IMG/VR virus record: IMGVR_UViG_3300031576_001126
Location: 64,001 to 128,000 of that record
DNA length: 64,000 bases
Reading direction: 5' to 3' (one strand)
DNA from: a virus
Numbering within the stretch: the first letter of the stretch is position 1; the number at the start of each line of letters is the position of its first letter. The notes beneath the pieces were generated by a model. It saw only the letters and a list, made by a program, of their open reading frames with translations, did not search any database and had not been told where the DNA came from. Made by a program: the position numbers and the translations under genes. Of this stretch, positions 5,975 to 60,042 are shown one piece after another.

Positions 5975-8900
5975 ATGGCAAATAGACGCACTAGTAAATA
6001 TTTGCTTCAATATTTTGAAGATGGCGATGTATATTCGGCGAAAGCTGATATGCAACGTTTCCAAACAGTAGAGAATCAACTTGATTTGGCATTAAAATTA
6101 AGCGGGGGAGGCGTACTGAGTGGATGGGGATTGTTACAGACTTCAGATCAATCTGGAACCACGGCGATAACTATAAATCCCGGTTTTGGAATTGTTCCAT
6201 TTACCCTCACCAAAATAGATCAAATTACTGGTGTTGCAACAAAAGAACAACATTTTATTGGTGTTAGAACTAATGCCCCCATAATTATCCCAAATTTGGG
6301 ATTAAATAGAATAAGTGTAATTTATATCGAAATAAACAATCAACTTATACAAAATTTACAAAATAATCCAGAAGCTATTATCGATCTTTCCGAAGAAGCA
6401 ATATTAATAATTGTAAGACCCTCTATAAACTCTCCAGCAGGATCCGGACCCTATAGAACAACGACATCGACAAACGAAGCCGGTCTTGAAAAAGATATCT
6501 CAACAGGACAGTCGTTTGATGAATATCCTATTTATTTTAAAAAAATAGATGGATTAACATTTATTCCAGATAACAATAAAGCCGTAGTTTTTATAAATGA
6601 TAAAAAGCTTTTTAGGAGATATTTTACAACCGGGTCCCAGGGAAATGTTATAGGTTTTAACGATCCTCTTCATCAAGAAGATAATGTTATTGTTCGTGTC
6701 GATCCATTAAACAGCTTAGTTATTGGTGAAGTTCGCACAGACAATACTAAAGTAATAGATATAAACAATGAAGCAAAAGAATTTGCAAGAGAAAAATCGG
6801 CAGATTCTTTGGTTGGTCCCGCAACACAATCTCATGTTCATGATGGTCAAGAAGGCAATCCGTCTAAAATTCTATTGACTACAAAAACTGATTTTATATC
6901 TCCATCATCTACGTCGGAAGACAGAATTTTTACTTTTAACAAACCCGACGAATCTGTTTATGGACATAATTTTGCTAATGGAACTTATGAAACTTTTGTT
7001 TATATAAATGGATTTTTTAGTTTTAATAGCGCATCTGTTTTGGATAATGGGAGCACCATAACTGTCACATTTCAACAAAGCTTAGAGCCAATAGATGTTG
7101 TTCAGATTGTTTTAGTTTTGAACAATGATCAAACACAAATAAAAAGCACATTAAATCTTTCAGGAAACAATCCATCTGAAGAAAAAGTCGATATAAACAT
7201 ATCTGGAGATAGTATAAAATTAGATCAGATAGATCCTATTTTAATTCCTGCTATAAGTCATATCGGAAGACACAAAGAGGCAATGCGTCCCGGAAATGAT
7301 CCCTTTTCGTCCAGAGAATATGTCCATCGTTCTGAAAATTTCGATTATCAAGAATTTTATCCAGTTCACAAGAATAAATTTAACGCAAGAAATGCAAAGC
7401 ATATCTTTTTTGATGAAAAAAATTCATCTTTAAAATTAATACATGCTTGTGCTTCTAATGATTTTTTGTATATGGAAACAGACAAATTGATGTTTCAATT
7501 GCCTGAAAATTTTATTGGTGGATGGTCAAGTATAACTTTAAACAAAGATATAAATGAATATGATTCTCCATTTATTATAATCCCAGTAAAAAATCCAATA
7601 AATATCACATCTGATAATTGGGATAGATTGTTTTACGTCGGAAATAGATTTATAAATCAAAACGACTGGCAAGATTTGAACAATCCTGATTTGGACGAAA
7701 TAGTAAATCTTTCATTTGATTTAAATACCACGCCCAATACAGCTAACAGAACCAATATCAATGGCATCAGAATACAAGACGCATGTGGTGGGGAAAGTCC
7801 ACTTTTGATGGATAAAACCGCTTTTATGTTATTGGATAATAGAGTTTATGTTTATGATTATATTTCTAATTTGAGCAAATATTTCTGGCTTGATATAACC
7901 TCGACTCCTCTATGGAATGAGGCTGTAAGTTTGAGTTGCATTGAGGTTGAAGAAAATACAATTCTTTTTGTTGGCACTTCTGATGGGAAAATTTATTGCA
8001 ATATATTGGCAAGCTCTGAAATAAACAATAGAATAGATTCTGGAGCTAATTTTGTTCCTAATGGAAATATTGATTTTAAACCATTCAATATATGGGAAAA
8101 TAATTCTTATAGTTATGGATATGGGTATAGCCAAGCTATTGATTTTTTTGATGTGTTTGGGGTTAGAGGAAATGTTTTTGGATACGGAACATCGGGATAT
8201 GGTTTCGGGAATGAAGAAAAACTTCCAATAAAAGTCGACAATAATTTATTATTTGTAACAGCCAATGTTTCAGAAAAAAATACTGTTGCTACTGTATCAG
8301 ACACCAGCCTATCTCTTGTTAATAATTTATTAAATACTTTTGTTGGGAAAACAAGCGGACTTCCAAACAGCTTTGTTTTATTAGATTGGTTTGAAATAGC
8401 AAATGGACTATCGGGAGAGATTAGAAAAGTAATATTTTCAAACGACAGGCTTGTTGTCACGTCCGATAGCGATGTTTATTATAGTGATGAGGTTGGAGAT
8501 AAAACAAATTTATATTTTAAAGAAGACTATACATGGACGAATGCCTTTGCTCCATCAGATACACACAATGATATTAATTCAACAAGTAATGACATTTTAA
8601 TATTGGCATCAGATAATAGCATTTACCGTGGTGTTTGGAATGGTTTGTTTTATTCATGGTCAGTTTCTGAGAATACAATATATGGAATATCTATAAATAA
8701 TATATTACATCCGTCTTCAACCATTATTGTTGATGAGAATGATATTTATTCTTGTGGGAAATATGGAATTTTCAAAAGTGTTGACGAAGGATTATCTTGG
8801 AGATCAACAACTCAAATAATCGGTCTTCCTGAAGATAGAAATTCTGTTTTTACCACAGAAAAGATAGAACTTAGAGTTTTAGATACCGATCCATCCCTTG

Positions 8901-47012: not shown

Positions 47013-48386
47013 ATGTCAAACATAGAAAACATCAGTGCTGGCAAAAAATGGACAGATAAAGAAAGAATTAAACTTTATAAGTTAGTTTCCATAAAAGGGA
47101 AGGTTTGGTCTTCTTTGGCCAAAGAATTTGACGTTTCTCCAGATTCCTGTGCAAAAAAATATAAAAGCACCAATTGGCCGCTTATTTTTTCCAGAAACAA
47201 TACAACAGAGACCAAAGTTGTAAAAGAAGCCATTGACAATTATAAAAAGAAAAATGTTGTAAAAGAAGAAACACAAAACATTCTTGCTTTAACTAAACAA
47301 AAATTACTACAACAAAGCACAGAAAGAGTTCAAAGAGAATTAGTGGAAAGAGCGGCCATTACAGAACTTATTTTAGAAAAAATAGAAAGCTCAATAAGCA
47401 AAGTCGAACCCATCTCTTTTGAAGAAATAAAATATCCTAAAACAATTGCCAACCGCACTCCCGAAGAAGCTTGTTTGATTTTATCAGATCTTCATGTTGG
47501 TTTGGCTTGTATCCCAGAAGAAGTTGGTGGGCTTGGAAATTATAACAAAGATGTGTTTTTAAAAAGATTAAATAATCTTGTAAATTCTATTTATAAAATC
47601 ACAGATATTCATAGATCTGTTTATAGAGTTGACACATTAAATATTTTTGGATTGGGTGATTTTGTTCACGGCTCTAATGATGCCGGTAAATGGGGATTTC
47701 TTCACACCGAACAAAATATAATGGATCAGATTTTTGTTTTAGTAAATGAAATAACTAAGGCGCTTCTTATTCTAAATAAAAAATTTAACAAAATCAAATT
47801 CCATGGCGTGGTTGGAAATCACGGAAGATGCTCTAAAAGAGGGATTGAAAAACACTATGTAAACTGGGACTATATAGTTTATAAAATGATTGAATCTTCT
47901 CTTTCAAATCAAAGAGGTATGGAGTTCTTTGTACCCAGATCTCTATTCCAAGTTGCCGAAGTTCTTGGATATAAATTTTTATTAATTCACGGAGATCAAA
48001 TAAAGGCATGGAATTCTTTGCCTATTTATGGATTAACAAGAGCAGATGGAAGATATAGGAATATGTTAACCGGAAATAAAAATTTAGAGGGGTTGATTGA
48101 GGAAATAGAGAACAAAAAAACAGATGTAAGCAAACCAGAATTGTTGATGAAGGCTTCGTTAATTTATGCCAAACCATTTGATTTTTTGATCGCAGGCCAT
48201 CATCATCAATCGGCAGAAATAGAATCGGCGGGAGGAGGAAAGATAATTTTAAATTCGAGTTTTCTCGGCGGTGATGATTATACTATTAATCAGCTACTGA
48301 CAACAGGGACAGCTTCGCAAAAGTTTTTCGGGATGCATCCAGAAGGCCGAACTTGGCAGTATGACATTGATTTGAACCGAACTTAA
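47013..48386 (+). CDS. Myb/SANT-like HTH fused to a calcineurin-like metallophosphoesterase
   Basis: N-terminal KKWTDKERIKL..LV...G..WSSLAKEF..SPDSCAKKY; phosphoesterase motifs SDLH, GDFVHG, GNHG, HGD, GHHH; AAGGAG RBS. Confidence 0.8.
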   Translation: MSNIENISAGKKWTDKERIKLYKLVSIKGKVWSSLAKEFDVSPDSCAKKYKSTNWPLIFSRNNTTETKVVKEAIDNYKKKNVVKEETQNILALTKQKLLQQSTERVQRELVERAAITELILEKIESSISKVEPISFEEIKYPKTIANRTPEEACLILSDLHVGLACIPEEVGGLGNYNKDVFLKRLNNLVNSIYKITDIHRSVYRVDTLNIFGLGDFVHGSNDAGKWGFLHTEQNIMDQIFVLVNEITKALLILNKKFNKIKFHGVVGNHGRCSKRGIEKHYVNWDYIVYKMIESSLSNQRGMEFFVPRSLFQVAEVLGYKFLLIHGDQIKAWNSLPIYGLTRADGRYRNMLTGNKNLEGLIEEIENKKTDVSKPELLMKASLIYAKPFDFLIAGHHHQSAEIESAGGGKIILNSSFLGGDDYTINQLLTTGTASQKFFGMHPEGRTWQYDIDLNRT

Positions 48387-50469: not shown

Positions 50470-51588
50470 ATGTCTAAAAAAAATACAAAAAATTATTATA
50501 ATATACTGGGTGTTTCTAAAGACGCATCTTTAGATGACATAAAAAAAGCCTTCAAAAACTTGGCTAAAAAATATCATCCAGATAAAACCGGAGAAGACAA
50601 AGACTCTGAAGAAAAATTTAAAGAAATAAGCGAAGCATATGAAAATCTTGCCGATCCTCAAAAAAGATCAAGATATGATTCAATTAGGTCTCCTAGAAAA
50701 TTTCCTCATTTTAAAGGGGGTTTCGATCCATTTGCTGGTGATTTTGATCCTTTTGATGATTTGAGAAAATTTAGTGGGTTTGGAAGACAAAAAAACGCTA
50801 AAGAAGAATTAACAGCTTATGTAAATATAGAAATAGATTTAGAAAAAATATGTTCCGGCACAGAAGAAAACATATTTTACGACAGGTGGTTTTGTTGTGA
50901 TGAATGTAATGGTAAAAAAACATTAAACAAAAACTCTATAATTATGTGTCGTGAATGTAATGGTCGTGGACAAATTTTAATGATGAATGGTCCGTTGACT
51001 ATTTTTTCAACCTGTCCAAGGTGTTATGGAAAATGCGAAATTATATCAGATCCATGCAAAAAATGCAATGGAAAAGGTTTTTTTGTTAAAAAACAAGAGT
51101 TAAAAAATATAAAAATACCAAAAGGGATAAGCGAAAATAATGTAATTAAAATAGACAAAATGGGACATTATAACGAAAATGGTTTGTGTGGGGATTTGAT
51201 TATTCAAATTTCTTATAAAGATCATCCTGTTTTTAAAAAATCTTTAGGCAAAATGGTAGCGAGAGATTGTGATGTTTTCTTTGAATGTTTTGTTCCTTTA
51301 CATGTGGCCATTTTAGGAGGAAAAATAAAAATTCCAACATTACAAGGTCCTTGTGATTTAGAAATTCAATCCGGATTAAAACATGGTTCCATTTTTATAC
51401 TTAAAAACAAAGGACTATATAAAATTAACAGGGGTGTTTCTGATTCTTTTGGAGATCAAATAAATATATTAAATATTGAAAATCCAAAAAACATAAGTGA
51501 CAAATTAAAAGAGGCTTTATTAGATATAAAAGAAGAAGAATATATAAACTATACAGAAAAAGTTAATAAAAAAGCAAACAAAATATGA
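50470..51588 (+). CDS. dnaJ: DnaJ co-chaperone (class A)
   Basis: J-domain with HPD, G/F-rich linker, four CxxCxG zinc motifs, C-terminal substrate-binding domain. Confidence 0.93.
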   Translation: MSKKNTKNYYNILGVSKDASLDDIKKAFKNLAKKYHPDKTGEDKDSEEKFKEISEAYENLADPQKRSRYDSIRSPRKFPHFKGGFDPFAGDFDPFDDLRKFSGFGRQKNAKEELTAYVNIEIDLEKICSGTEENIFYDRWFCCDECNGKKTLNKNSIIMCRECNGRGQILMMNGPLTIFSTCPRCYGKCEIISDPCKKCNGKGFFVKKQELKNIKIPKGISENNVIKIDKMGHYNENGLCGDLIIQISYKDHPVFKKSLGKMVARDCDVFFECFVPLHVAILGGKIKIPTLQGPCDLEIQSGLKHGSIFILKNKGLYKINRGVSDSFGDQINILNIENPKNISDKLKEALLDIKEEEYINYTEKVNKKANKI

Positions 51589-53357
51589 AAACCACAGATA
51601 TTTTATTAGAACTAATACTAAACGAAGTTTTTAAACACAAAAATTTAAAAATAGGAGATGTTGAACTCGATATTTCTGTTGCAGATCTTTATATTCTTGC
51701 CGATAGAAAAAAAACAAAAAGATCAATTAATTTAGCTTTAAAAAAACTAGCCGACGTTGGTATGTTACAATATAATCCAGAAGAAAAAAAGAAAACAAAA
51801 AATTTAATACTTAAAAATGTAATATGTTTTTCTAAAAAAATAAAAGATGATGTGTTTTTTGACTTTGATAATACTTTTTATGATTACTTTTCAAATTTTG
51901 ATGAAACAAATATCTTGGATAGTATAAAGTGTCAAAATAATAAAAACACAATATTAAAAAAATATATAAATTTTATTTATGAAATATCTCTCGAATTTTC
52001 AAACAAGAGGAGATGTTTTAAAAACGCAGGGTTGTTTTCAGACTTCATTGTGATAGATTTTCCTACTAAAGTTAACATTCAAACTGCGAAAGATTTTGCC
52101 AATTCAACAAAATGTTTCACCAAAAGTTTCGCAGATTTGCATATAAGATCTGAAAATTTTATATCATTCAAACTGCGAAAGATTTTGCCAATTCAACCAA
52201 AAGTTTCGCAGATCTGCGAAAGATTTGCCAAAATTTGCGAAAACTGGAAGACAATGTACGTACATAAGAATATACTATTATCTGAAAATAGAAACAATGT
52301 ACAAATTCCTTGTACGTACATTGTCTCCGAAATTTCGCAGATTGATTCAAAAGTTTCTCAGATTAAGAGGAAGCAAAAAATGGAGAAAGAAAACTTTATT
52401 GGAAAATTTAAACCTAATTATAAAAAAAATTCAAAAGATTCAAAAGTTTTATTTGTTTCAAAATCACAATCTATAAATATAGAAGACATATTAGATGACA
52501 AGGAAGTTGTCAGAGGAATAGAAAATATGCCTTTGTCGGCTTATAAAGCTAGACAATGGATGGATTTAATATATAAACTTCATAAAAAAATAAGAGGATA
52601 TAATTATAACTCAGGTATCCTCGTAGATAGTCAAGCCCTAACGGGGAAGATTTATCCGCTTGTTTTTGAAAAATTTGAATTTAGTGCTATTGATTTTAAA
52701 GAATATATAGAAGAACTAATAGAACAGAAAGATTATTCTGGAAAGTTTGTTAAATTTATTGTGGGTTTTATAGGATCTAATGATTCAAGGATAAATGATA
52801 TTGAACGATTTATAGGGCACAAGAAGAGGCTTCGTGAAGAAGATATTTTCGAGGATAAAATCTACCTACCTCATTGGCCCTTGACAGCAGATAACGATGA
52901 CTTGTATACTGTTATTAATAGGATGCCGAAAAGGCCATTGGCTATCCTTTATAATTATGGTATAGTTTTGTATTATAGATTTTTGCAAGCAAAAAACGCT
53001 TTTTCTATGGAAGAAGCCATTGATGAAATTAGTCGAATTTTCATCAAAGAATTTATCGAATTAAAAATGATAGACTCACATCCAGATGTCGTTGAAAAAA
53101 TTCTTGCGGGAATTGCGAAGAATACTCTACTATGGGAGCCATACCCTGAAAACGAAGCAGGGAAATCGACATATTTAAAACATATTGACTGGAGAAAATC
53201 ATTTTATAAGATTTTTTCGGATAAAAAATTCAAAATAACATCTTCCCTTTGGTGGAAAGATCATCAAAACAACAATTTAAACAAAATTCCAGCAGTTGAC
53301 CTGATGTTTAAAAAAAGAAACAAAAATGCATTACATATCGAAAATCTCGTAGTTTAA
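51585..53357 (+). CDS. Hypothetical protein, putative replication initiator (wHTH-like N-terminus, internal DNA repeat array)
   Basis: N-terminal ISVADL...KRSINLALKKLADVGML resembles a winged HTH. The DNA repeat cluster at 52076-52364 and the position upstream of loader/helicase genes support an initiator role (inference). Confidence 0.5.
   Translation: MKTTDILLELILNEVFKHKNLKIGDVELDISVADLYILADRKKTKRSINLALKKLADVGMLQYNPEEKKKTKNLILKNVICFSKKIKDDVFFDFDNTFYDYFSNFDETNILDSIKCQNNKNTILKKYINFIYEISLEFSNKRRCFKNAGLFSDFIVIDFPTKVNIQTAKDFANSTKCFTKSFADLHIRSENFISFKLRKILPIQPKVSQICERFAKICENWKTMYVHKNILLSENRNNVQIPCTYIVSEISQIDSKVSQIKRKQKMEKENFIGKFKPNYKKNSKDSKVLFVSKSQSINIEDILDDKEVVRGIENMPLSAYKARQWMDLIYKLHKKIRGYNYNSGILVDSQALTGKIYPLVFEKFEFSAIDFKEYIEELIEQKDYSGKFVKFIVGFIGSNDSRINDIERFIGHKKRLREEDIFEDKIYLPHWPLTADNDDLYTVINRMPKRPLAILYNYGIVLYYRFLQAKNAFSMEEAIDEISRIFIKEFIELKMIDSHPDVVEKILAGIAKNTLLWEPYPENEAGKSTYLKHIDWRKSFYKIFSDKKFKITSSLWWKDHQNNNLNKIPAVDLMFKKRNKNALHIENLVV
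52076..52364. repeat. Iteron/palindrome array, candidate replication origin
   Basis: Perfect 33-bp direct repeat CATTCAAACTGCGAAAGATTTTGCCAATTCAAC (52076-52108, 52165-52197). CCAAAAGTTTCGCAGAT occurs twice (52120, 52197). An 18-bp perfect palindrome TTTCGCAGATCTGCGAAA lies at 52204-52221. A 16-bp inverted repeat AGACAATGTACGTACA is at 52249-52264 / 52311-52326. Confidence 0.85.
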
Positions 53358-53380: not shown

Positions 53381-55147
53381 ATGGCAGCAAAAAAAGAAAG
53401 TCAATCTGTTCCGCAAAATGAAAAAAAACTTGTAGGTAAATTTTTAACAGCCGCTCAAGAACTTACGGATTTAATAAGAAGTGTCAAGCCAGTTATTTAT
53501 CTGGAAAGCAACGAGTCGGAAAAAACAATTATAAATATAATTGGTAAAATTTGTGAGGATGGGACTCATGGAGATAAGTATAAAAGACAACTTTATATTT
53601 GGGATTCTGTTAAAGGTCTCTATTCAAGAGAAATAATAAACGGGTATCCAGAGACAACGGTTCATAACGATCAAGCTAAAGATCCGGGAGCCATATTGGA
53701 TGTTATTATATCAGAGCAACCAAAAAGCGGAGATTCTTGTTATATTTTGTGTGAATTTCATCATTATTTAGAAAATTCAAATATTCAAAGAAGATTGCGT
53801 AATTTTGTGGAAGAGGTTGCCTCAAGAAAGAGAAAAAACATTATTTTACTTTGTCCAAAAAATGCTGGTATGTCTAGAGATGGAAAAAAAATTCCCATGG
53901 AACTCGAAAATATTGTTCATATTTTTGAGTGGCCCATTCCAGATAGCGAGGTTTTAAGGGATAGTGTTTGCGGCAGTTTGATTCCTTCTTTTAATCTTGC
54001 TTTTAAAAATAGGAATCCTCCTCTTCCAGAGTTGAAATTTGATGAAGATGCGATTGATGAATTGGTCAATTCTTTTAAGGGATTAACTTTGGCGGAAGTT
54101 GAATCAGCCGCTTGCTCTTCGGTTGTTAAAACACAAACTCTTGTCCCAGAAATAATTATCAAAGCAAAAAAACAAATAATTAAGAAGAGTGGTCTCGTGG
54201 AATATATAGAACCAAGGGGAGATAAATTAGATGATGTCGGTGGAGTTGAGAATTTAAAAAAATGGCTCAATGAAAGAAAACCAATTCTTTCCGAGAATGC
54301 TTTTGAGTTTGGATGTGATATGCCGAATGGAATGATGTTAATCGGTCCATGGGGAACCGGAAAATCTACCGTTGCAAAAGCTGTTATCAATGAATGGGGT
54401 CTTCCGGGATTGAGAATTGATGCTGCAAAAATCATGGACAGTTTTGTTGGGTCGTCGGAGCGCAACGCCGCCGCCGCATTAAAAGTTGCTGATTCAGTTG
54501 CACCCTGCATTTTATGGTGGGACGAAATCGATGACCTTTTTAGCGGTGCGGCATCCTCGGCGGTTAGCGATGGCGGAACAACATCCCGTGTTATTGGAAC
54601 TATTTCAACATGGATGAACGAACATGAGGGATTGGTTTTTAATATATTCACTGCGAATGACGTAAGTAATAGACCACCCAAACTATTTAGAAAAGGTCGT
54701 ATTGATGAAATTTTCATTGTTGATCTTCCGACAGAAGAAGAACGAAAAGAAATTTTTAATATCCATATTGAAAAACGTCGTCAAAAAGGCTATGTAAAAG
54801 AAAGACGAATTGATATCGACAAGTTTGCTAAAATGTCAAAAATGTTTTCTGGAGCGGAAATTCGAGAGGCGGTAAATACCGGCTTTATAAGGGCATATAA
54901 CGATGGAAAACGTGACATCAAAACTGCCGATATTTTTGATGCCATTAAAAATACTATCCCACTTTCATGTACAATGAAAGAAAATCTCATTCAAATACGA
55001 AAATGGCAACAAGGTCGTGCGGTTAGAGCTTCAATTTTCTCTCCTGAAGAAATAATTGATTTTAAAGAATATAGTCAAGGCATTTTAAATTCAAATTATA
55101 GTGTGTCTGGAGAATCCCCAGGCGCTGCTGGTTTGATTGACGTATAA
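53381..55147 (+). CDS. Ycf46-like AAA+ ATPase (degenerate N-terminal AAA module + active C-terminal module)
   Basis: LDDVGGVENLKKWL, Walker A GPWGTGKS, VGSSE, Walker B ILWWDEID, TAN, RKGRIDE; AGGAG RBS. Confidence 0.85.
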   Translation: MAAKKESQSVPQNEKKLVGKFLTAAQELTDLIRSVKPVIYLESNESEKTIINIIGKICEDGTHGDKYKRQLYIWDSVKGLYSREIINGYPETTVHNDQAKDPGAILDVIISEQPKSGDSCYILCEFHHYLENSNIQRRLRNFVEEVASRKRKNIILLCPKNAGMSRDGKKIPMELENIVHIFEWPIPDSEVLRDSVCGSLIPSFNLAFKNRNPPLPELKFDEDAIDELVNSFKGLTLAEVESAACSSVVKTQTLVPEIIIKAKKQIIKKSGLVEYIEPRGDKLDDVGGVENLKKWLNERKPILSENAFEFGCDMPNGMMLIGPWGTGKSTVAKAVINEWGLPGLRIDAAKIMDSFVGSSERNAAAALKVADSVAPCILWWDEIDDLFSGAASSAVSDGGTTSRVIGTISTWMNEHEGLVFNIFTANDVSNRPPKLFRKGRIDEIFIVDLPTEEERKEIFNIHIEKRRQKGYVKERRIDIDKFAKMSKMFSGAEIREAVNTGFIRAYNDGKRDIKTADIFDAIKNTIPLSCTMKENLIQIRKWQQGRAVRASIFSPEEIIDFKEYSQGILNSNYSVSGESPGAAGLIDV

Positions 55148-55225: not shown

Positions 55226-56056
55226 ATGGAAAGCATGCAAAAGACATTTTCCTTGAGTAAAGCAATGGAAAATGACGAAAAAAAGTTTTATAGAAAAAAT
55301 TCCGACATTCCTAAAGAATATTGGGCATATCGGTGGGTCAAGGTTTCCGATGGAGATAAATTTTATGATCCAGAATTCTCAACTCAAAACAAGATAATTT
55401 CTGAAAAAACAATTTTCAATAGAACTAAAGCCAGAGATTTCGCTATAGATTATGTTAAAAATTTAGATCAAAATATTTCTTCCGGAAAGTCTATAGTATT
55501 TATGGGTGGAAAAGATTCAGGAAAAACTGTTCTTGCAACATTAATTTTAAGAGAGATTATCAACAAAACACTTGGAGACGTTTTGTTTGTGCCGTTTAGT
55601 CAACTTATCGTTGAATCAAATGTATATCTTCAAGACGATATAAAGAATTTTACAGAGAAATATACATCTCCGTTGGCTTTGTGTATTGACGATATTGATG
55701 TAAGGAACACCTCCGAGAAGCTTAAAGAATACTTAGATCATATTTTAACTTTTAGAAGATTAAATCTTCTGCCAACAATCATTACCTCGGTGGGAGACTT
55801 TAAGGACATTAGAAAGACATGCGGAGATCCCGTATATAGATTATTATCCGATAACAAAATATATAAAATATTTAGCATAGCGTCTTTTGATGAACAAAAT
55901 TATGGTATAGATTATTTTCACACAGGACACAAGGTCGATATAGATTTGTTAATCTCGGAACTTAGAAAGATAAAGATTTCCAAAGGAAAAGAAAACAAAA
56001 TAAGTATGGAAGAGCTTCAATCCGTTCTTTGTAGAGCTATTCATGGACAGAGTTGA
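55226..56056 (+). CDS. DnaC/IstB-like helicase loader ATPase
   Basis: IP..Y, A..Y..N, GKSIVFMGGKDSGKT, LCIDD, R...LLPTIITS, RL; directly upstream of dnaB. Confidence 0.8.
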   Translation: MESMQKTFSLSKAMENDEKKFYRKNSDIPKEYWAYRWVKVSDGDKFYDPEFSTQNKIISEKTIFNRTKARDFAIDYVKNLDQNISSGKSIVFMGGKDSGKTVLATLILREIINKTLGDVLFVPFSQLIVESNVYLQDDIKNFTEKYTSPLALCIDDIDVRNTSEKLKEYLDHILTFRRLNLLPTIITSVGDFKDIRKTCGDPVYRLLSDNKIYKIFSIASFDEQNYGIDYFHTGHKVDIDLLISELRKIKISKGKENKISMEELQSVLCRAIHGQS

Positions 56057-57671
56057 ATTAGAAAATCAAATTATATATTTTATATTGTCTGATCCAAAAC
56101 TTCTTGAATCTTCAATTTTGGAAAAGGGAATAGATGTATCTTCTTTTTCCGACGAGGGCAATAGATTAGTTTCGTCCATGGCGTTTGACTATTTTGAAAG
56201 ATTTGGAAAATGCGTTCCAAAAGAAGAGTTTGATATTTTAATAAACGATAAGCTAAATAAGAAAAAAATAACCCAGGCACAACATCATTCCTCAATAAAA
56301 GCTTTTAAAAGAGCGTTGAATTTGGATGGAGAAATTACTCCTGTGCAATTTGACCGAATTGCTTATGATTTGGTGTCTGTCGTTAAAAACACATCAGCAA
56401 GAGAAATAATTTTAAAACATAGCGGTCTTTTAAATAGTTTCAAAACGCTGGATTATATAGATAAAATAACCGGAGAATTAGACAAATTAAGAATAAACAA
56501 CGGGGAACTGGACGATATAGAGGTTCTTGATGTTTATAAAGATATAGAACTTCAAATTGAGGATTTGAAGAAAAGAAGAAACGATGAAAATGCCAGAGGA
56601 ATTCCAACAGGAATAAGAACTTTAGATGAAAGATTTGTTGGCTTTGAAAAGAGATTTTTGACAATAGTTGCGGCTGTTATTAATACAGGAAAATCTACAT
56701 TCGTATTAAATGTGTCAAGAAATGCCGCTGAATTTTTTGGAAAAAAAGTTTTAATCATGTCCCTCGAAATGCCAACTAAGCAATGGGCAAGAAAATATAA
56801 TGCGTTGGATTGTTGGGTTCCATATAGCTACTTGCAAAGAGGAAACAAAACGCTTTTGCCAGATGATGAGTTTGAAAACTTTTGTAAGCGGCTGGAAGAA
56901 AGACGAGACAAAGGAAGGTCGGGAGAATATAGGATTATTTCTGCCCCGGCTAGTAAATATTCATTTAAAGAACTAATGAATCTTAAAGATAAAAAACTAC
57001 CAACATATAAGCCAGATATTATTTTTATAGACCAACTATCTTTAATTAAACTTCCTGGCAAAAGAGAAAAAAAAGATGAATTGGGAGATTTGACAAAAGA
57101 AATAATAGCCTATGGATATATAAAAGATATCGCAATGGTCGCCGTGGCCCAAGCGAACAGGGCGTCAATTAGAAGAAATGGAGCTAAAAGGGAAATAGAT
57201 ATCAATATAGAAAACTTGGAAGACTCAAATAAAATAGGCGCAGATGCTCATAATGTTTTAGCGCTTATGTCTCCTCCGTCTTCCGGTGGCCATAGAATGT
57301 TGCTTAAAATAGTGAAACAACGAGATGGAGAAACAGGAACTTTTGAAATAGCATCAAGATTGGATTATTGTGCTATAATTGATATCGAAACAGAAGAAAT
57401 TGGAAATTCATCGCTTGAAGATGGAGATCTCGTTTTTGGAGAAGAAGAAATTGATGATACGGGTCTTGATGCGATATCAGGCGAGCCAGTTAAAGCGAAC
57501 CTTCCTGAAAATCTTTCAAAAGCCATAGCGATAGATTCTCGACCAAACAATGAAGATTCAATACTGAACAAAAGCGCAGAAGAGTTAAAGAAACAAAAGA
57601 ATCCATTTGCCGCAGATGACGATTACGATATTATAAGAACAAATGAGATGGAAGATATTTTTAATGAGTAA
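56043..57671 (+). CDS. dnaB: DnaB-like replicative helicase
   Basis: GIPTG..LD, AAVINTGKS, SLEM, IFIDQL, VAQANR, KQRDG; acidic C-terminal tail. Confidence 0.9.
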   Translation: MDRVELENQIIYFILSDPKLLESSILEKGIDVSSFSDEGNRLVSSMAFDYFERFGKCVPKEEFDILINDKLNKKKITQAQHHSSIKAFKRALNLDGEITPVQFDRIAYDLVSVVKNTSAREIILKHSGLLNSFKTLDYIDKITGELDKLRINNGELDDIEVLDVYKDIELQIEDLKKRRNDENARGIPTGIRTLDERFVGFEKRFLTIVAAVINTGKSTFVLNVSRNAAEFFGKKVLIMSLEMPTKQWARKYNALDCWVPYSYLQRGNKTLLPDDEFENFCKRLEERRDKGRSGEYRIISAPASKYSFKELMNLKDKKLPTYKPDIIFIDQLSLIKLPGKREKKDELGDLTKEIIAYGYIKDIAMVAVAQANRASIRRNGAKREIDINIENLEDSNKIGADAHNVLALMSPPSSGGHRMLLKIVKQRDGETGTFEIASRLDYCAIIDIETEEIGNSSLEDGDLVFGEEEIDDTGLDAISGEPVKANLPENLSKAIAIDSRPNNEDSILNKSAEELKKQKNPFAADDDYDIIRTNEMEDIFNE

Positions 57672-58827
57672 AGAAGATAATAGTGTCTTTTATCTTAATA
57701 TTTTTGATGAAATAAGATCAACTGTCTCTCTAGTTAAAGAGATGGAGAGCCATGGAATAAAATTTGTGTCAGGGGGGAGAGGGAGGCTCAAATGTTGTTG
57801 TCCTTTTCCAGATCACAAAGACGGAACACCATCATGTTTTGTCTGGACAAACAATGATCCTGAGTCATTTTATTGTTTTGGATGTAAAAAAAGTGGCAGT
57901 GTTATTGATTTTACAATGTATTATGGAGAAAACGGGCAAGATCAACTAACCTTACGTAGCTCTATAGAATATCTTATAAAAAAACATGATATAAAGTCAG
58001 ACAGATTTGATATAGAAAAAATAAAAAATATTCCAGACAAGTATAAAAAAAATGAGCCTCCGTTTTTTTCAAAAACATTACTAATTTCAGAAGACATTAG
58101 AGATTTTATTTCACAATCTATAGATCTCGATAGAGATTTTAAGGAAATTTCCCATTATACAAGAAATATAGATTTGTCTCTGTTTAATAGAGATTATCAG
58201 TCAATTGGGGTATATGAAGAAATAATAAGCAAAGCCCTTAAAAGTGTGAGAAAAAAAGATTTGATATTTGGTCTTAAAAAAGAATGTTTAAATTGTCATC
58301 TTTGTGATTTGAGGTTGGGTTGTAAGAAGCCAATTTTTGGAAATGGAAACTATTCGGCAAAAATTTTAATACTTTGGGATTCTCCTCATGAATTTGAAAA
58401 CAAACAAGATAAATTAATCGACTATGGGATAGGTAAAATTTTACAAGATAAAATTGTCAAAAATAAAATAGATATCTCTCTTTTTTGGTTTGCAACATGC
58501 ATTTGTTGCTCATCAAAAAGAAATCCCAAGACAGAAGAAGTAAATATGTGTATAAAATCTTATTTATCAAAAGTGTTGAATTGTATTGATATAAAAAGTA
58601 TAATAATTATTGGAGAAAAAACAAAAGATTTTTTATTGCCCAATATGATTGAGGAAGAATACAATTCTATGTGTTGGTCAAAAAGGTCCGTGACTTTGTT
58701 TGGGAAAAGTTATTCTGTGGCTTTTTTGCCTGAGACTTCTCGTATTTTTAACAAAAGTCAGGCTCAAAATTTGTTGGAGCCGAAATTTGTTGCGCTTTTG
58801 AACGAAGCCGTGATATCTTTGTCTTGA
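57664..58827 (+). CDS. Primase CHC2 zinc-finger fused to a degenerate family-4 uracil-DNA-glycosylase-like domain
   Basis: CPFPDHKDGTPS...FYCFGC...GSVIDF is zf-CHC2. The C-terminal CLNCHLC...IFGNG...AKILI...CC...RNP..EE...C..YL matches the UDG4/Fe-S scaffold. No TOPRIM domain is present. Confidence 0.8.
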   Translation: MSKEDNSVFYLNIFDEIRSTVSLVKEMESHGIKFVSGGRGRLKCCCPFPDHKDGTPSCFVWTNNDPESFYCFGCKKSGSVIDFTMYYGENGQDQLTLRSSIEYLIKKHDIKSDRFDIEKIKNIPDKYKKNEPPFFSKTLLISEDIRDFISQSIDLDRDFKEISHYTRNIDLSLFNRDYQSIGVYEEIISKALKSVRKKDLIFGLKKECLNCHLCDLRLGCKKPIFGNGNYSAKILILWDSPHEFENKQDKLIDYGIGKILQDKIVKNKIDISLFWFATCICCSSKRNPKTEEVNMCIKSYLSKVLNCIDIKSIIIIGEKTKDFLLPNMIEEEYNSMCWSKRSVTLFGKSYSVAFLPETSRIFNKSQAQNLLEPKFVALLNEAVISLS

Positions 58828-58878: not shown

Positions 58879-60042
58879 ATGAAGAATGAAACAAAAACGA
58901 TTGAGCATAATGATGAAAATTTAGCAGAAAAGGATACAGTAAGAGAAATTTCTCTTGAAAATGTCATAGATGATGTTAGTAAAACCAATAACATTCCTAA
59001 AGACAAATTAAAGAGAAATGTTGAAGAGTGGATTGTTGCCCTTATGAACAAGGGTGTTGTTGTCTCTTTGGAAATTAAAAGATGGAGAGCCAATTCAAAG
59101 GTTTCACCGGATGAGGTTGGTATTGATGATTCGAAACCAGAATATTCCGAGTATAAAGAAAAATACCTGACCCTGGGAAACAAAAAACTTTTACCTAAAA
59201 GGGTATTAAAGGAAATAGCCTCAATAGAAAATCGTGCAAGAAAAAACCTTGAAGACCATTCGATTGAGACTGTATGGGGAAGATTTATTCCACACACATC
59301 GTTCAAGGAATGGAAAGATAACAATGATGGAATTAGGGCCGAATTTTTCAACAAGGCTAATGAGATTGCCACGAATTGGTTGCCTCTTGGCGAGGAAGTT
59401 ATTAATGATTATGAAAATTTTATATCTTCTAATTACGAAGATAAAACAAAACATAAAGAAGAGATAGAAGAAACAAAAAGAGGTCTTGTTGAAGATTTGA
59501 AAAGAGAAATGATTACACCAGAACATTTTGTTTTCACATTTGATTATGAAGTTTTTTTCACCTATATTCCTTTACCATCTGTAATTCAAAAAGATTTACT
59601 AGAACAAGAAAAACTGCGGCTGGAACAAGAACAATTGACTAGCGAAGCTGAAATGAATGAAAGAGTTCGAGAAGAAATTCTTAAAAAGAAATCCGAGCAT
59701 ATTGACGAATTTCTACAAGCTACAGCAGGAGCTATTGGCGAATCCACTAAGAGAATTTTGGATGAGGTTCGCATAGCAATTGGTGAAAACGGAGAGAAAG
59801 AAGTAAGTCCAAGCATTAAGAAAAAATTATTGAAATTGATTAAAACAGTAAGAAGTTTGGATTTTTTTCAAGAAGACAACACAGTTAACGCATTAAACAA
59901 ACTTGAAGTCGATTTAAATTCAACAAAAGAAGAGAAAAAAACATTCAACAGCATAAAGGAAAGTGTTGATGCTTTTGAAAAATCAGCCAAATCTATGTTT
60001 AATGAATGGATTTATGGCAGGATCAATATGATTGAGATATAA
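58879..60042 (+). CDS. DUF3150-like protein
   Basis: VVSLEIKRW...K...EVG...LGNKKLLP...L.......RAR..L......GRFIP pattern followed by a coiled-coil; GAGGAG RBS. Confidence 0.55.
   Translation: MKNETKTIEHNDENLAEKDTVREISLENVIDDVSKTNNIPKDKLKRNVEEWIVALMNKGVVVSLEIKRWRANSKVSPDEVGIDDSKPEYSEYKEKYLTLGNKKLLPKRVLKEIASIENRARKNLEDHSIETVWGRFIPHTSFKEWKDNNDGIRAEFFNKANEIATNWLPLGEEVINDYENFISSNYEDKTKHKEEIEETKRGLVEDLKREMITPEHFVFTFDYEVFFTYIPLPSVIQKDLLEQEKLRLEQEQLTSEAEMNERVREEILKKKSEHIDEFLQATAGAIGESTKRILDEVRIAIGENGEKEVSPSIKKKLLKLIKTVRSLDFFQEDNTVNALNKLEVDLNSTKEEKKTFNSIKESVDAFEKSAKSMFNEWIYGRINMIEI

Follow-up and report, generated by a model that had tools for sequence, protein, structure and literature searches.

Iteron-plasmid Rep proteins such as RepE, pi and RepA of pPS10 read DNA through winged helices and recognise the same core as inverted repeats in their operators and as iterons in their origins, and many iteron systems combine autoregulation with origin function. 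In phages, the placement of an origin inside its initiator's gene is textbook knowledge. The lambda origin (ori) lies within the middle of gene O, which additional iterons lengthen in Shiga toxin (Stx) phages (PMC7466680); in SPP1, the oriL repeats lie within gene 38 and are bound by gp38, with an AT-rich unwinding element and then the genes for the loader gp39 and the DnaB-type helicase gp40 (PMC6316719). Here we analyse a 64,000-nucleotide window, bases 64,001-128,000 of the single 140,188-bp contig of IMG/VR record IMGVR_UViG_3300031576_001126, which PHROG matches mark as a large uncultured phage. We focus on a ~290-bp cluster of repeated sites inside a 590-amino-acid (aa) open reading frame (ORF), P0001, at 51585..53357 on the + strand (coordinates are those of the window unless another record is named).

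The reading that we favour, with moderate confidence, is that this cluster serves the phage as replication origin, or as the core to which the initiator binds, and lies inside the initiator's own gene in the part that encodes a linker. We favour it because the sites form a clustered array unique in the genome, because GTAC is kept there despite its purge elsewhere, because the protein's N-terminal domain (N-domain) is predicted to be a winged helix and because the repeats are confined to the linker; repeats in the linkers of homologues, shared gene order with a loader and DnaB, palindromic non-coding regions at two related loci and a nearby unstable duplex point the same way.

A genome-unique array of sites in both orientations

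Two direct repeats of 46 nt each, 93% identical, occupy 52073-52118 and 52162-52207. Their 89-bp spacing is not a multiple of three, so they are read in different frames, appearing in the ORF translation as IQTAKDFANS and FKLRKILPIQ; an initial annotation of this DNA had described this arrangement correctly but had given the repeat length as 33 rather than 46 nt. The core CTGCGAAA/TTTCGCAG occurs at 52084(+), 52127(-), 52173(+), 52204(-), 52214(+) and 52333(-), and these six copies, all inside the cluster, are the only ones in the entire genome (2.7 expected); the chance of all six falling within 257 bp is P ~1e-13. With the one-mismatch variants at 52235 and 52354, the array numbers eight sites (52082..52363), whose consensus is ~AATCTGCGAAAnnTTT, and both the cores and the variants lie where the initial annotation had placed them.

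Four sites are in the plus orientation (52082-52091, 52171-52180, 52212-52221 and a variant at 52233-52242) and four in the minus orientation (52127-52136, 52204-52213, 52333-52342 and a variant at 52354-52363). Their core of 8-10 bp is kept in all eight copies despite differing flanks, and they fall in all three codon phases; together with the two orientations, this indicates that the constraint on the core acts on DNA and not on the peptide, as had been proposed. A position weight matrix (PWM) built from the eight sites gave no match of 20 bits or more outside the cluster in a whole-genome scan; the best outlier, at 18.9 bits, is a single site at genome position ~11,390, inside a 370-aa ORF (G000:C1:10947-12059). 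By local repeat density the array region ranks third in the genome, with only the tandem repeats at the contig ends ranking higher. Other repeat-dense places are those contig-end repeats and repeats within a large minus-strand ORF, and none of them is an array of sites in both orientations. An assembly artefact, a concern raised by the initial annotation, is ruled out by the imperfection of the copies, their mixed orientation and the conserved length of the ORF among homologues.

Two partly overlapping sites of opposite orientation form the perfect 18-bp palindrome TTTCGCAGATCTGCGAAA at 52204..52221, again as previously described. An imperfect dyad of 152 bp (52212..52363) has 53-nt arms (52212-52264 and 52311-52363) that are 77% complementary around a 46-nt spacer (52265-52310), with the sites inside each arm 21 bp apart; these arms are longer than the ~30 bp originally assigned to them. 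Folded as single-stranded DNA, the dyad reaches -29.4 kcal/mol, compared with -12.2 +/- 2.6 for shuffled sequences (z -6.5).

The inner part of the dyad is a GTAC-rich core (52255..52320), with TGTACGTACA at 52255 and 52311 and TGTACA at 52298; both genome copies of TGTACGTACA lie in the cluster, near the inner ends of the dyad arms, and five of the 38 GTAC sites of the genome are packed into 61 bp there. Genome-wide, GTAC occurs at 0.09 of expectation (38 vs 431 expected, an ~11-fold avoidance), and CGCG (0 vs 111), ACGT (101 vs 431) and CTAG (127 vs 431) are likewise depleted; a depletion of short palindromes this strong points to pressure from restriction in the host. Despite this, the strongly avoided words GTAC and ACGT are concentrated in the cluster.

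The least stable duplex near the repeats lies at 51887..51986, ~100 bp left of the array in the generally AT-rich N-terminal coding part. Its nearest-neighbour stability of -103.2 kcal/mol per 100 bp (99.98th percentile) places it among the four least stable 100-bp segments of the genome, and it is a better candidate for an unwinding element than the spacer of the dyad. Matches to the DnaA box TTATCCACA with at most one mismatch number 23 in the window, where 23.6 are expected, and none falls between 46632 and 55556; there is thus no DnaA-box cluster such as a DnaA-dependent origin would have.

The candidate initiator and its relatives

The start codon of P0001 overlaps the stop codon of the preceding DnaJ gene (ATGA). 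The protein has no Pfam, PHROG or NCBIfam match, and in Pfam neither the full sequence nor its parts 1-112 and 1-265 gave a match even at E<=10; nor did the family profile match any PDB sequence. The view that it belongs to an unrecognised family of initiators is consistent with these results.

Structure prediction divides the protein into three parts. Residues 1-80 (51585..51824) are predicted by AlphaFold2 (AF2), at a predicted local distance difference test score (pLDDT) of 70-86, to form a helix-turn-helix with a beta-hairpin wing, a model that superposes on solved winged helices. The best fold matches of this N-domain are CRP/FNR DNA-binding domains (Z 10.1 to 8.3, rmsd 2.0-2.5 A over 67-72 residues), led in VIA-align by that of CRP/Vfr (7few_A; Z 10.1, rmsd 2.3 A, 72 residues). 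More than 40 further winged-helix chains from the CRP/FNR, MarR, Fur and ORC/Cdc6 groups align at Z >=7.2, and the atlas leads are likewise winged helix-turn-helix (wHTH) domains. The 590-aa protein has neither the nucleotide-binding domain of the CRP/FNR proteins nor a sequence-level match to their family, and a shared fold alone is no proof of shared function.

The linker that follows (residues 81-296, 51825..52472) is predicted to be unstructured, with pLDDT <50 over residues 81-173 and 175-296 when AlphaFold was run with the family alignment, and is poorly conserved, forming the variable block of alignment A1. It holds the whole repeat cluster: the eight sites and the dyad correspond to codons 166-260, entirely within this low-confidence part. 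The C-terminal domain (C-domain; residues 300-580, 52482..53324) is predicted to be helical, with pLDDT above 90, and folds on its own in prediction with pLDDT 83 and a predicted template modelling score (pTM) of 0.81. It belongs to an unrecognised family and gave no fold match in PDB or BFVD (best VIA Z 5.3; Foldseek E 1.4 for PDB and 0.16 for BFVD); atlas leads to the T4 gp59 N-domain and the DnaA C-domain are weak.

Between the array and the C-domain lies an in-frame internal start candidate at 52367..52382 (+ strand), consisting of GAGGA, 8 nt and an ATG at 52380 (residue 266). Shine-Dalgarno motifs are in use in this genome, the internal Met is aligned in 5 of the 6 long forms of the protein, and the shorter homologues described below start ~15 residues beyond the corresponding position. 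To judge from these features, the C-domain may perhaps also be expressed separately from this ATG.

Relatives were sought exhaustively with HMMER among 1.8 billion cluster representatives; this yielded 37 proteins or clusters and so defines a rare family; none of 29 members carries a Pfam domain. Word-based protein searches, with the single sequence or with a six-sequence profile, returned the query alone, and annotated phage records gave nothing in a megablast search with 8 kb or a tblastn search with the 590-aa ORF; the relatives of the neighbouring AAA+ protein in those records are all below 31% identity.

Five homologues are full length (582-627 aa, 27-32% identity) and keep the frame open, which shows that the 590-aa ORF is real. 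All six long forms keep it open through a middle that barely aligns. Chance would not preserve such a frame in A+T-rich DNA, from which it follows that the linker is translated; it is nonetheless shaped by DNA-level constraints. The initial annotation had suggested looking for a variable linker with repeats of its own in homologues, and all five have one, with in-frame peptide repeats at residues ~175-250: an exact 11-residue repeat 44 residues apart in P0004, FPQNLR twice at a distance of 39 residues in P0002, tandem EKSM units in P0005, and six copies of SAV in P0007, mostly at 7-residue (21-bp) steps. Such in-frame peptide repeats would be no more than the visible part of any repeats in the DNA. 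No contig with a long form was found in the scanned viral and genome contig collections, and a scan with a tighter family alignment re-found only a contig with a short form (L001).

Some 30 further homologues of 275-325 aa match the C-domain only. The DNA context of these short forms was read in two loci, L001, an IMG/VR contig found via its DnaB, and L002, a contig from a JGI metagenome. In both, the short gene lies immediately upstream of genes for a DnaC-like loader and DnaB, with an AAA+ gene between in L002, and downstream of a divergent non-coding region of 350-590 bp that bears palindromes or symmetric elements of its own and has an SF2 helicase gene on its other side. The L002 region carries, upstream of the short gene at 7836-7891, a run of GTAC palindromes that includes GTACGTACA, as in the window; 8 of the 24 GTACs in that locus fall within 48 bp (P ~4e-12), and both loci are GTAC-poor like the phage genome. 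In L001, a 67-nt inverted repeat, 97% complementary, flanks 199 nt of the non-coding region (L001:7760-8092); it might serve as an origin or in regulation, or it might be a small insertion. The same non-coding region contains, just upstream of the short gene, the 100 bp with the lowest duplex stability in this 21-kb locus.

The N-domain, looked for as a separate gene, is encoded nowhere in either locus. In the long forms, the wHTH domain and the repeat linker thus occupy the place that the non-coding control region has in the short forms, and the long forms probably arose when a short-form gene was joined in one frame to an intergenic region bearing an origin and to a wHTH gene.

L002 has two further small elements. 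Upstream of its GTAC palindromes, at L002:7769-7814, are two tandem 12-mers containing AGGGGGG and an 11-bp hairpin (TATACCCAACA / TGTTGGGTTTA), and the 13-mer TATACCCAACAGT recurs at L002 8242, within the short-form gene.

Comparison with described origins and competing readings

P0001 stands near the head of a replication module on the + strand with the order DnaJ, 590-aa ORF, AAA+, DnaC-like loader, DnaB, primase. The full-length DnaJ (50470..51588), with J domain, CXXCXGXG zinc-finger domain and C-terminal domain, is translationally coupled to P0001, which is followed by a classical-clade (Cdc48/FtsH-like) AAA+ ATPase of phrog_8638 (53381..55147), a DnaC/IstB-like helicase loader (55226..56056), a DnaB-type replicative helicase (56043..57671) and a primase with a DnaG-type CHC2 zinc ribbon (57643..58827). 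An order of C-domain gene, DnaC-like gene and DnaB gene, with or without AAA+ after the first, is found in the window, L001 and L002; the AAA+ gene that follows the short form in L002 is also of phrog_8638, which is absent from L001. The repeats in the linker, the predicted winged helix and this module support the earlier suggestion of an origin inside an initiator gene upstream of loader and helicase genes. The primase gene is directly followed by one for a DUF3150-family protein (58879-60042), which has no PHROG or NCBIfam match.

With a wHTH domain, a genome-unique array in the linker DNA and a C-domain linked by synteny to a loader, the locus follows the logic of lambda O and its origin and of SPP1 gp38 and oriL. 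The DnaJ and DnaK chaperones take part in lambda replication, and a chaperone link recurs here in the phage DnaJ gene coupled to P0001. Like the lambdoid phages lambda, Stx P27 and 933W, this phage would have its origin in the middle of the initiator gene, with loader and helicase functions next to it, and it has further features of the lambda layout in at least four repeated sites and an array in the linker-coding part. The lambdoid comparison drawn in the initial annotation thus holds for the in-gene layout but does not extend to lambda-like tandem iterons: where lambda has four to six tandem 19-bp iterons, the sites here are mostly inverted pairs with a 152-bp dyad. The loader is DnaC/IstB-like rather than P; the phage itself encodes a DnaB, a primase, a DnaJ and an AAA+ ATPase; and the strongest AT-rich tract is upstream of the sites.

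Shared with SPP1 are direct repeats inside the candidate initiator's gene and the order of initiator, loader and phage-encoded DnaB-family helicase, whereas an AAA+ gene is inserted here between initiator and loader. No second array comparable to oriR was found by the genome-wide PWM scan, in which the sole outlying site is isolated and inside a gene. With the iteron-plasmid Reps the protein shares a winged-helix domain and one core used in both inverted and direct repeats, its binding here being predicted; it differs in having one predicted winged helix (residues 1-80, the next 215 being of low confidence) instead of two in tandem, and in having its sites inside the gene rather than beside it.

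These likenesses do not extend to the level of sequence families. The protein has no Pfam match to lambda O (Phage_rep_O) even at E<=10, nor a PHROG or NCBIfam match to that family; no Pfam or PHROG match to the SPP1 gp38-type replisome-organiser families, nor any PDB sequence match to the profile of its own family; and no Pfam match to Rep_3. These results place it outside all three families.

Several observations weigh against reading the cluster as an origin. The spacing of the sites (45, 44, 33, 8, 21, 100 and 21 bp) is irregular, unlike that of classic phased iterons, and the spacer of the dyad, described as AT-rich in the initial annotation, is so only to a moderate degree (78% A+T vs 66% for the genome, the 91st percentile). 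DNA-level repeats in the long-form homologues are surmised from peptide repeats only. Since the short forms have no wHTH domain, the conserved part of the family cannot read these particular sites. The GC-skew analysis that had been suggested shows no inflection or switch at the cluster: cumulative skew rises steadily from ~9 kb to the contig end and turns only where gene orientation turns. As the + strand carries almost all genes and the skew follows this single direction of transcription, however, GC skew cannot locate an origin in this genome.

The inverted pairs and the dyad also surround promoter-like -35 and -10 elements (AAGACA-17-TATACT, 52248-52276, with TGTACGTACA in the spacer of this promoter-like match) and would fit an operator as well as an origin. 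On this account, which we regard as unlikely though deserving attention, the cluster would be an operator and internal-promoter region through which the wHTH protein or another regulator autoregulates, perhaps with a transcript for the C-domain only that is translated from the ATG at 52380. CRP-type winged helices are typically dimeric regulators of palindromic sites, the perfect 18-bp palindrome and the large dyad would suit such a regulator, a Shine-Dalgarno motif and a conserved in-frame Met follow 60 bp downstream, and the equivalent region in L001 and L002 is a divergent promoter region. Promoter-like matches are, however, no commoner than in shuffled sequence (9 vs 11.1), a simple operator would hardly have as many as eight sites over 290 bp, and a position at the head of a loader and helicase module, next to an extreme AT tract, better suits an origin; moreover, autoregulation and origin function could coexist, so the two accounts are only partly rivals. 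The dyad could instead act as a hairpin of RNA or single-stranded DNA, for instance by controlling translation from the internal start or by marking a site of processing, given its strong fold relative to shuffles and its end 4 nt upstream of the Shine-Dalgarno motif that precedes the internal ATG; but Rfam gives only sub-threshold, generic hairpin look-alikes and the hairpin does not take in the left half of the array (52082-52213), which makes this explanation highly improbable.

P1 pac and parC-type centromeres consist of repeated sites flanking a central region, and an array of that general likeness, unique in the genome and accompanied elsewhere by an ORF that resembles actin or ParM, might be a packaging (pac), partition or recombination site. 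This too is improbable, if marginally less so than a hairpin: the gene that contains the array belongs to a replication module and is ~105 kb away from the ParM-like ORF, no terminase or integrase gene was seen adjoining the array, the repeat-bearing linkers of homologues travel with the wHTH and C-domain protein, and the contig ends bear different tandem repeats. Least probable of all, in our judgement, is that the repeats are without function and arose recently, by local duplication and inversion within a disordered linker that tolerates such changes. The 93% identity of the 46-nt pair could reflect a recent event, and disordered linkers do tolerate insertions; against this stand the retention of the 8-10-bp core in eight copies with differing flanks and both orientations, the concentration of the otherwise avoided words GTAC and ACGT, and the recurrence of repeat-bearing linkers with different sequences in five homologues at ~30% identity.

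Under the origin reading, we infer that the winged-helix N-domain would bind the eight sites, each ~14-16 bp and arranged as inverted pairs and the 152-bp dyad, and that the resulting nucleoprotein complex would strain the DNA, opening it either at the 46-bp spacer between the GTAC palindromes or at 51887-51986. The helical C-domain would then recruit the complex of DnaC-like loader and DnaB; phage DnaJ and the classical-clade AAA+ ATPase might remodel or release the loader, by analogy with the need of lambda for DnaJ and DnaK, after which the primase would initiate synthesis.

A variant of this scheme, tentative and in our estimate doubtful, has two layers: the GTAC dyad would be the conserved core of the origin, read by a protein that short-form phages have as well, either the C-domain or the AAA+ ATPase of phrog_8638, found alongside GTAC clusters both in the window and in L002. 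The wHTH domain with the CTGCGAAA sites would be an added specificity module, gained through the fusion of an upstream gene with the origin-bearing intergenic region into one frame. Were this so, the C-domain family would consist of initiators of a new class, binding origins or recruiting helicases, and the locus would be an example of an origin absorbed into a gene.

Because the layout itself is textbook, the gain from the origin reading lies in annotation and in a new protein family rather than in a new principle: a large uncultured phage gains a concrete candidate origin and candidate initiator, and a rare family at the head of DnaC-like/DnaB modules, with neither annotation nor a known fold, is now defined. 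The new details are the mixed orientation of the sites, the large dyad, the GTAC palindromes common to a short-form relative that has no wHTH domain, and the existence of fused and split forms, which offer a natural experiment on how origins enter initiator genes.

Wider genome setting

The contig has a G+C content of 34%, and CCGG is ~2-fold enriched in it. Its ends, both outside the window, carry tandem repeats: at the start (G000:C1:1-190), ~17 copies of TCCTCTTA are followed by 6 of TTGTTCTCTT, and near the end (G000:C1:139825-139920) lie ~11 copies of AAGAAACTC. No overlap joins the two ends, and the contig may therefore lack some sequence or have been broken at the repeats.

The 370-aa ORF at G000:C1:10947-12059, also outside the window, resembles an actin/ParM/MreB-type ATPase at its N-terminus and is a candidate only; it adjoins the only strand switch of the genome and the minimum of the GC skew. 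Upstream of the replication module, at 47013-48386, lies a gene for an Mre11/SbcD-like metallophosphoesterase (phrog_284 exonuclease) with an apparent N-terminal Myb-like DNA-binding domain at residues 11-53, where both Myb matches fall slightly below the Pfam cut-offs.

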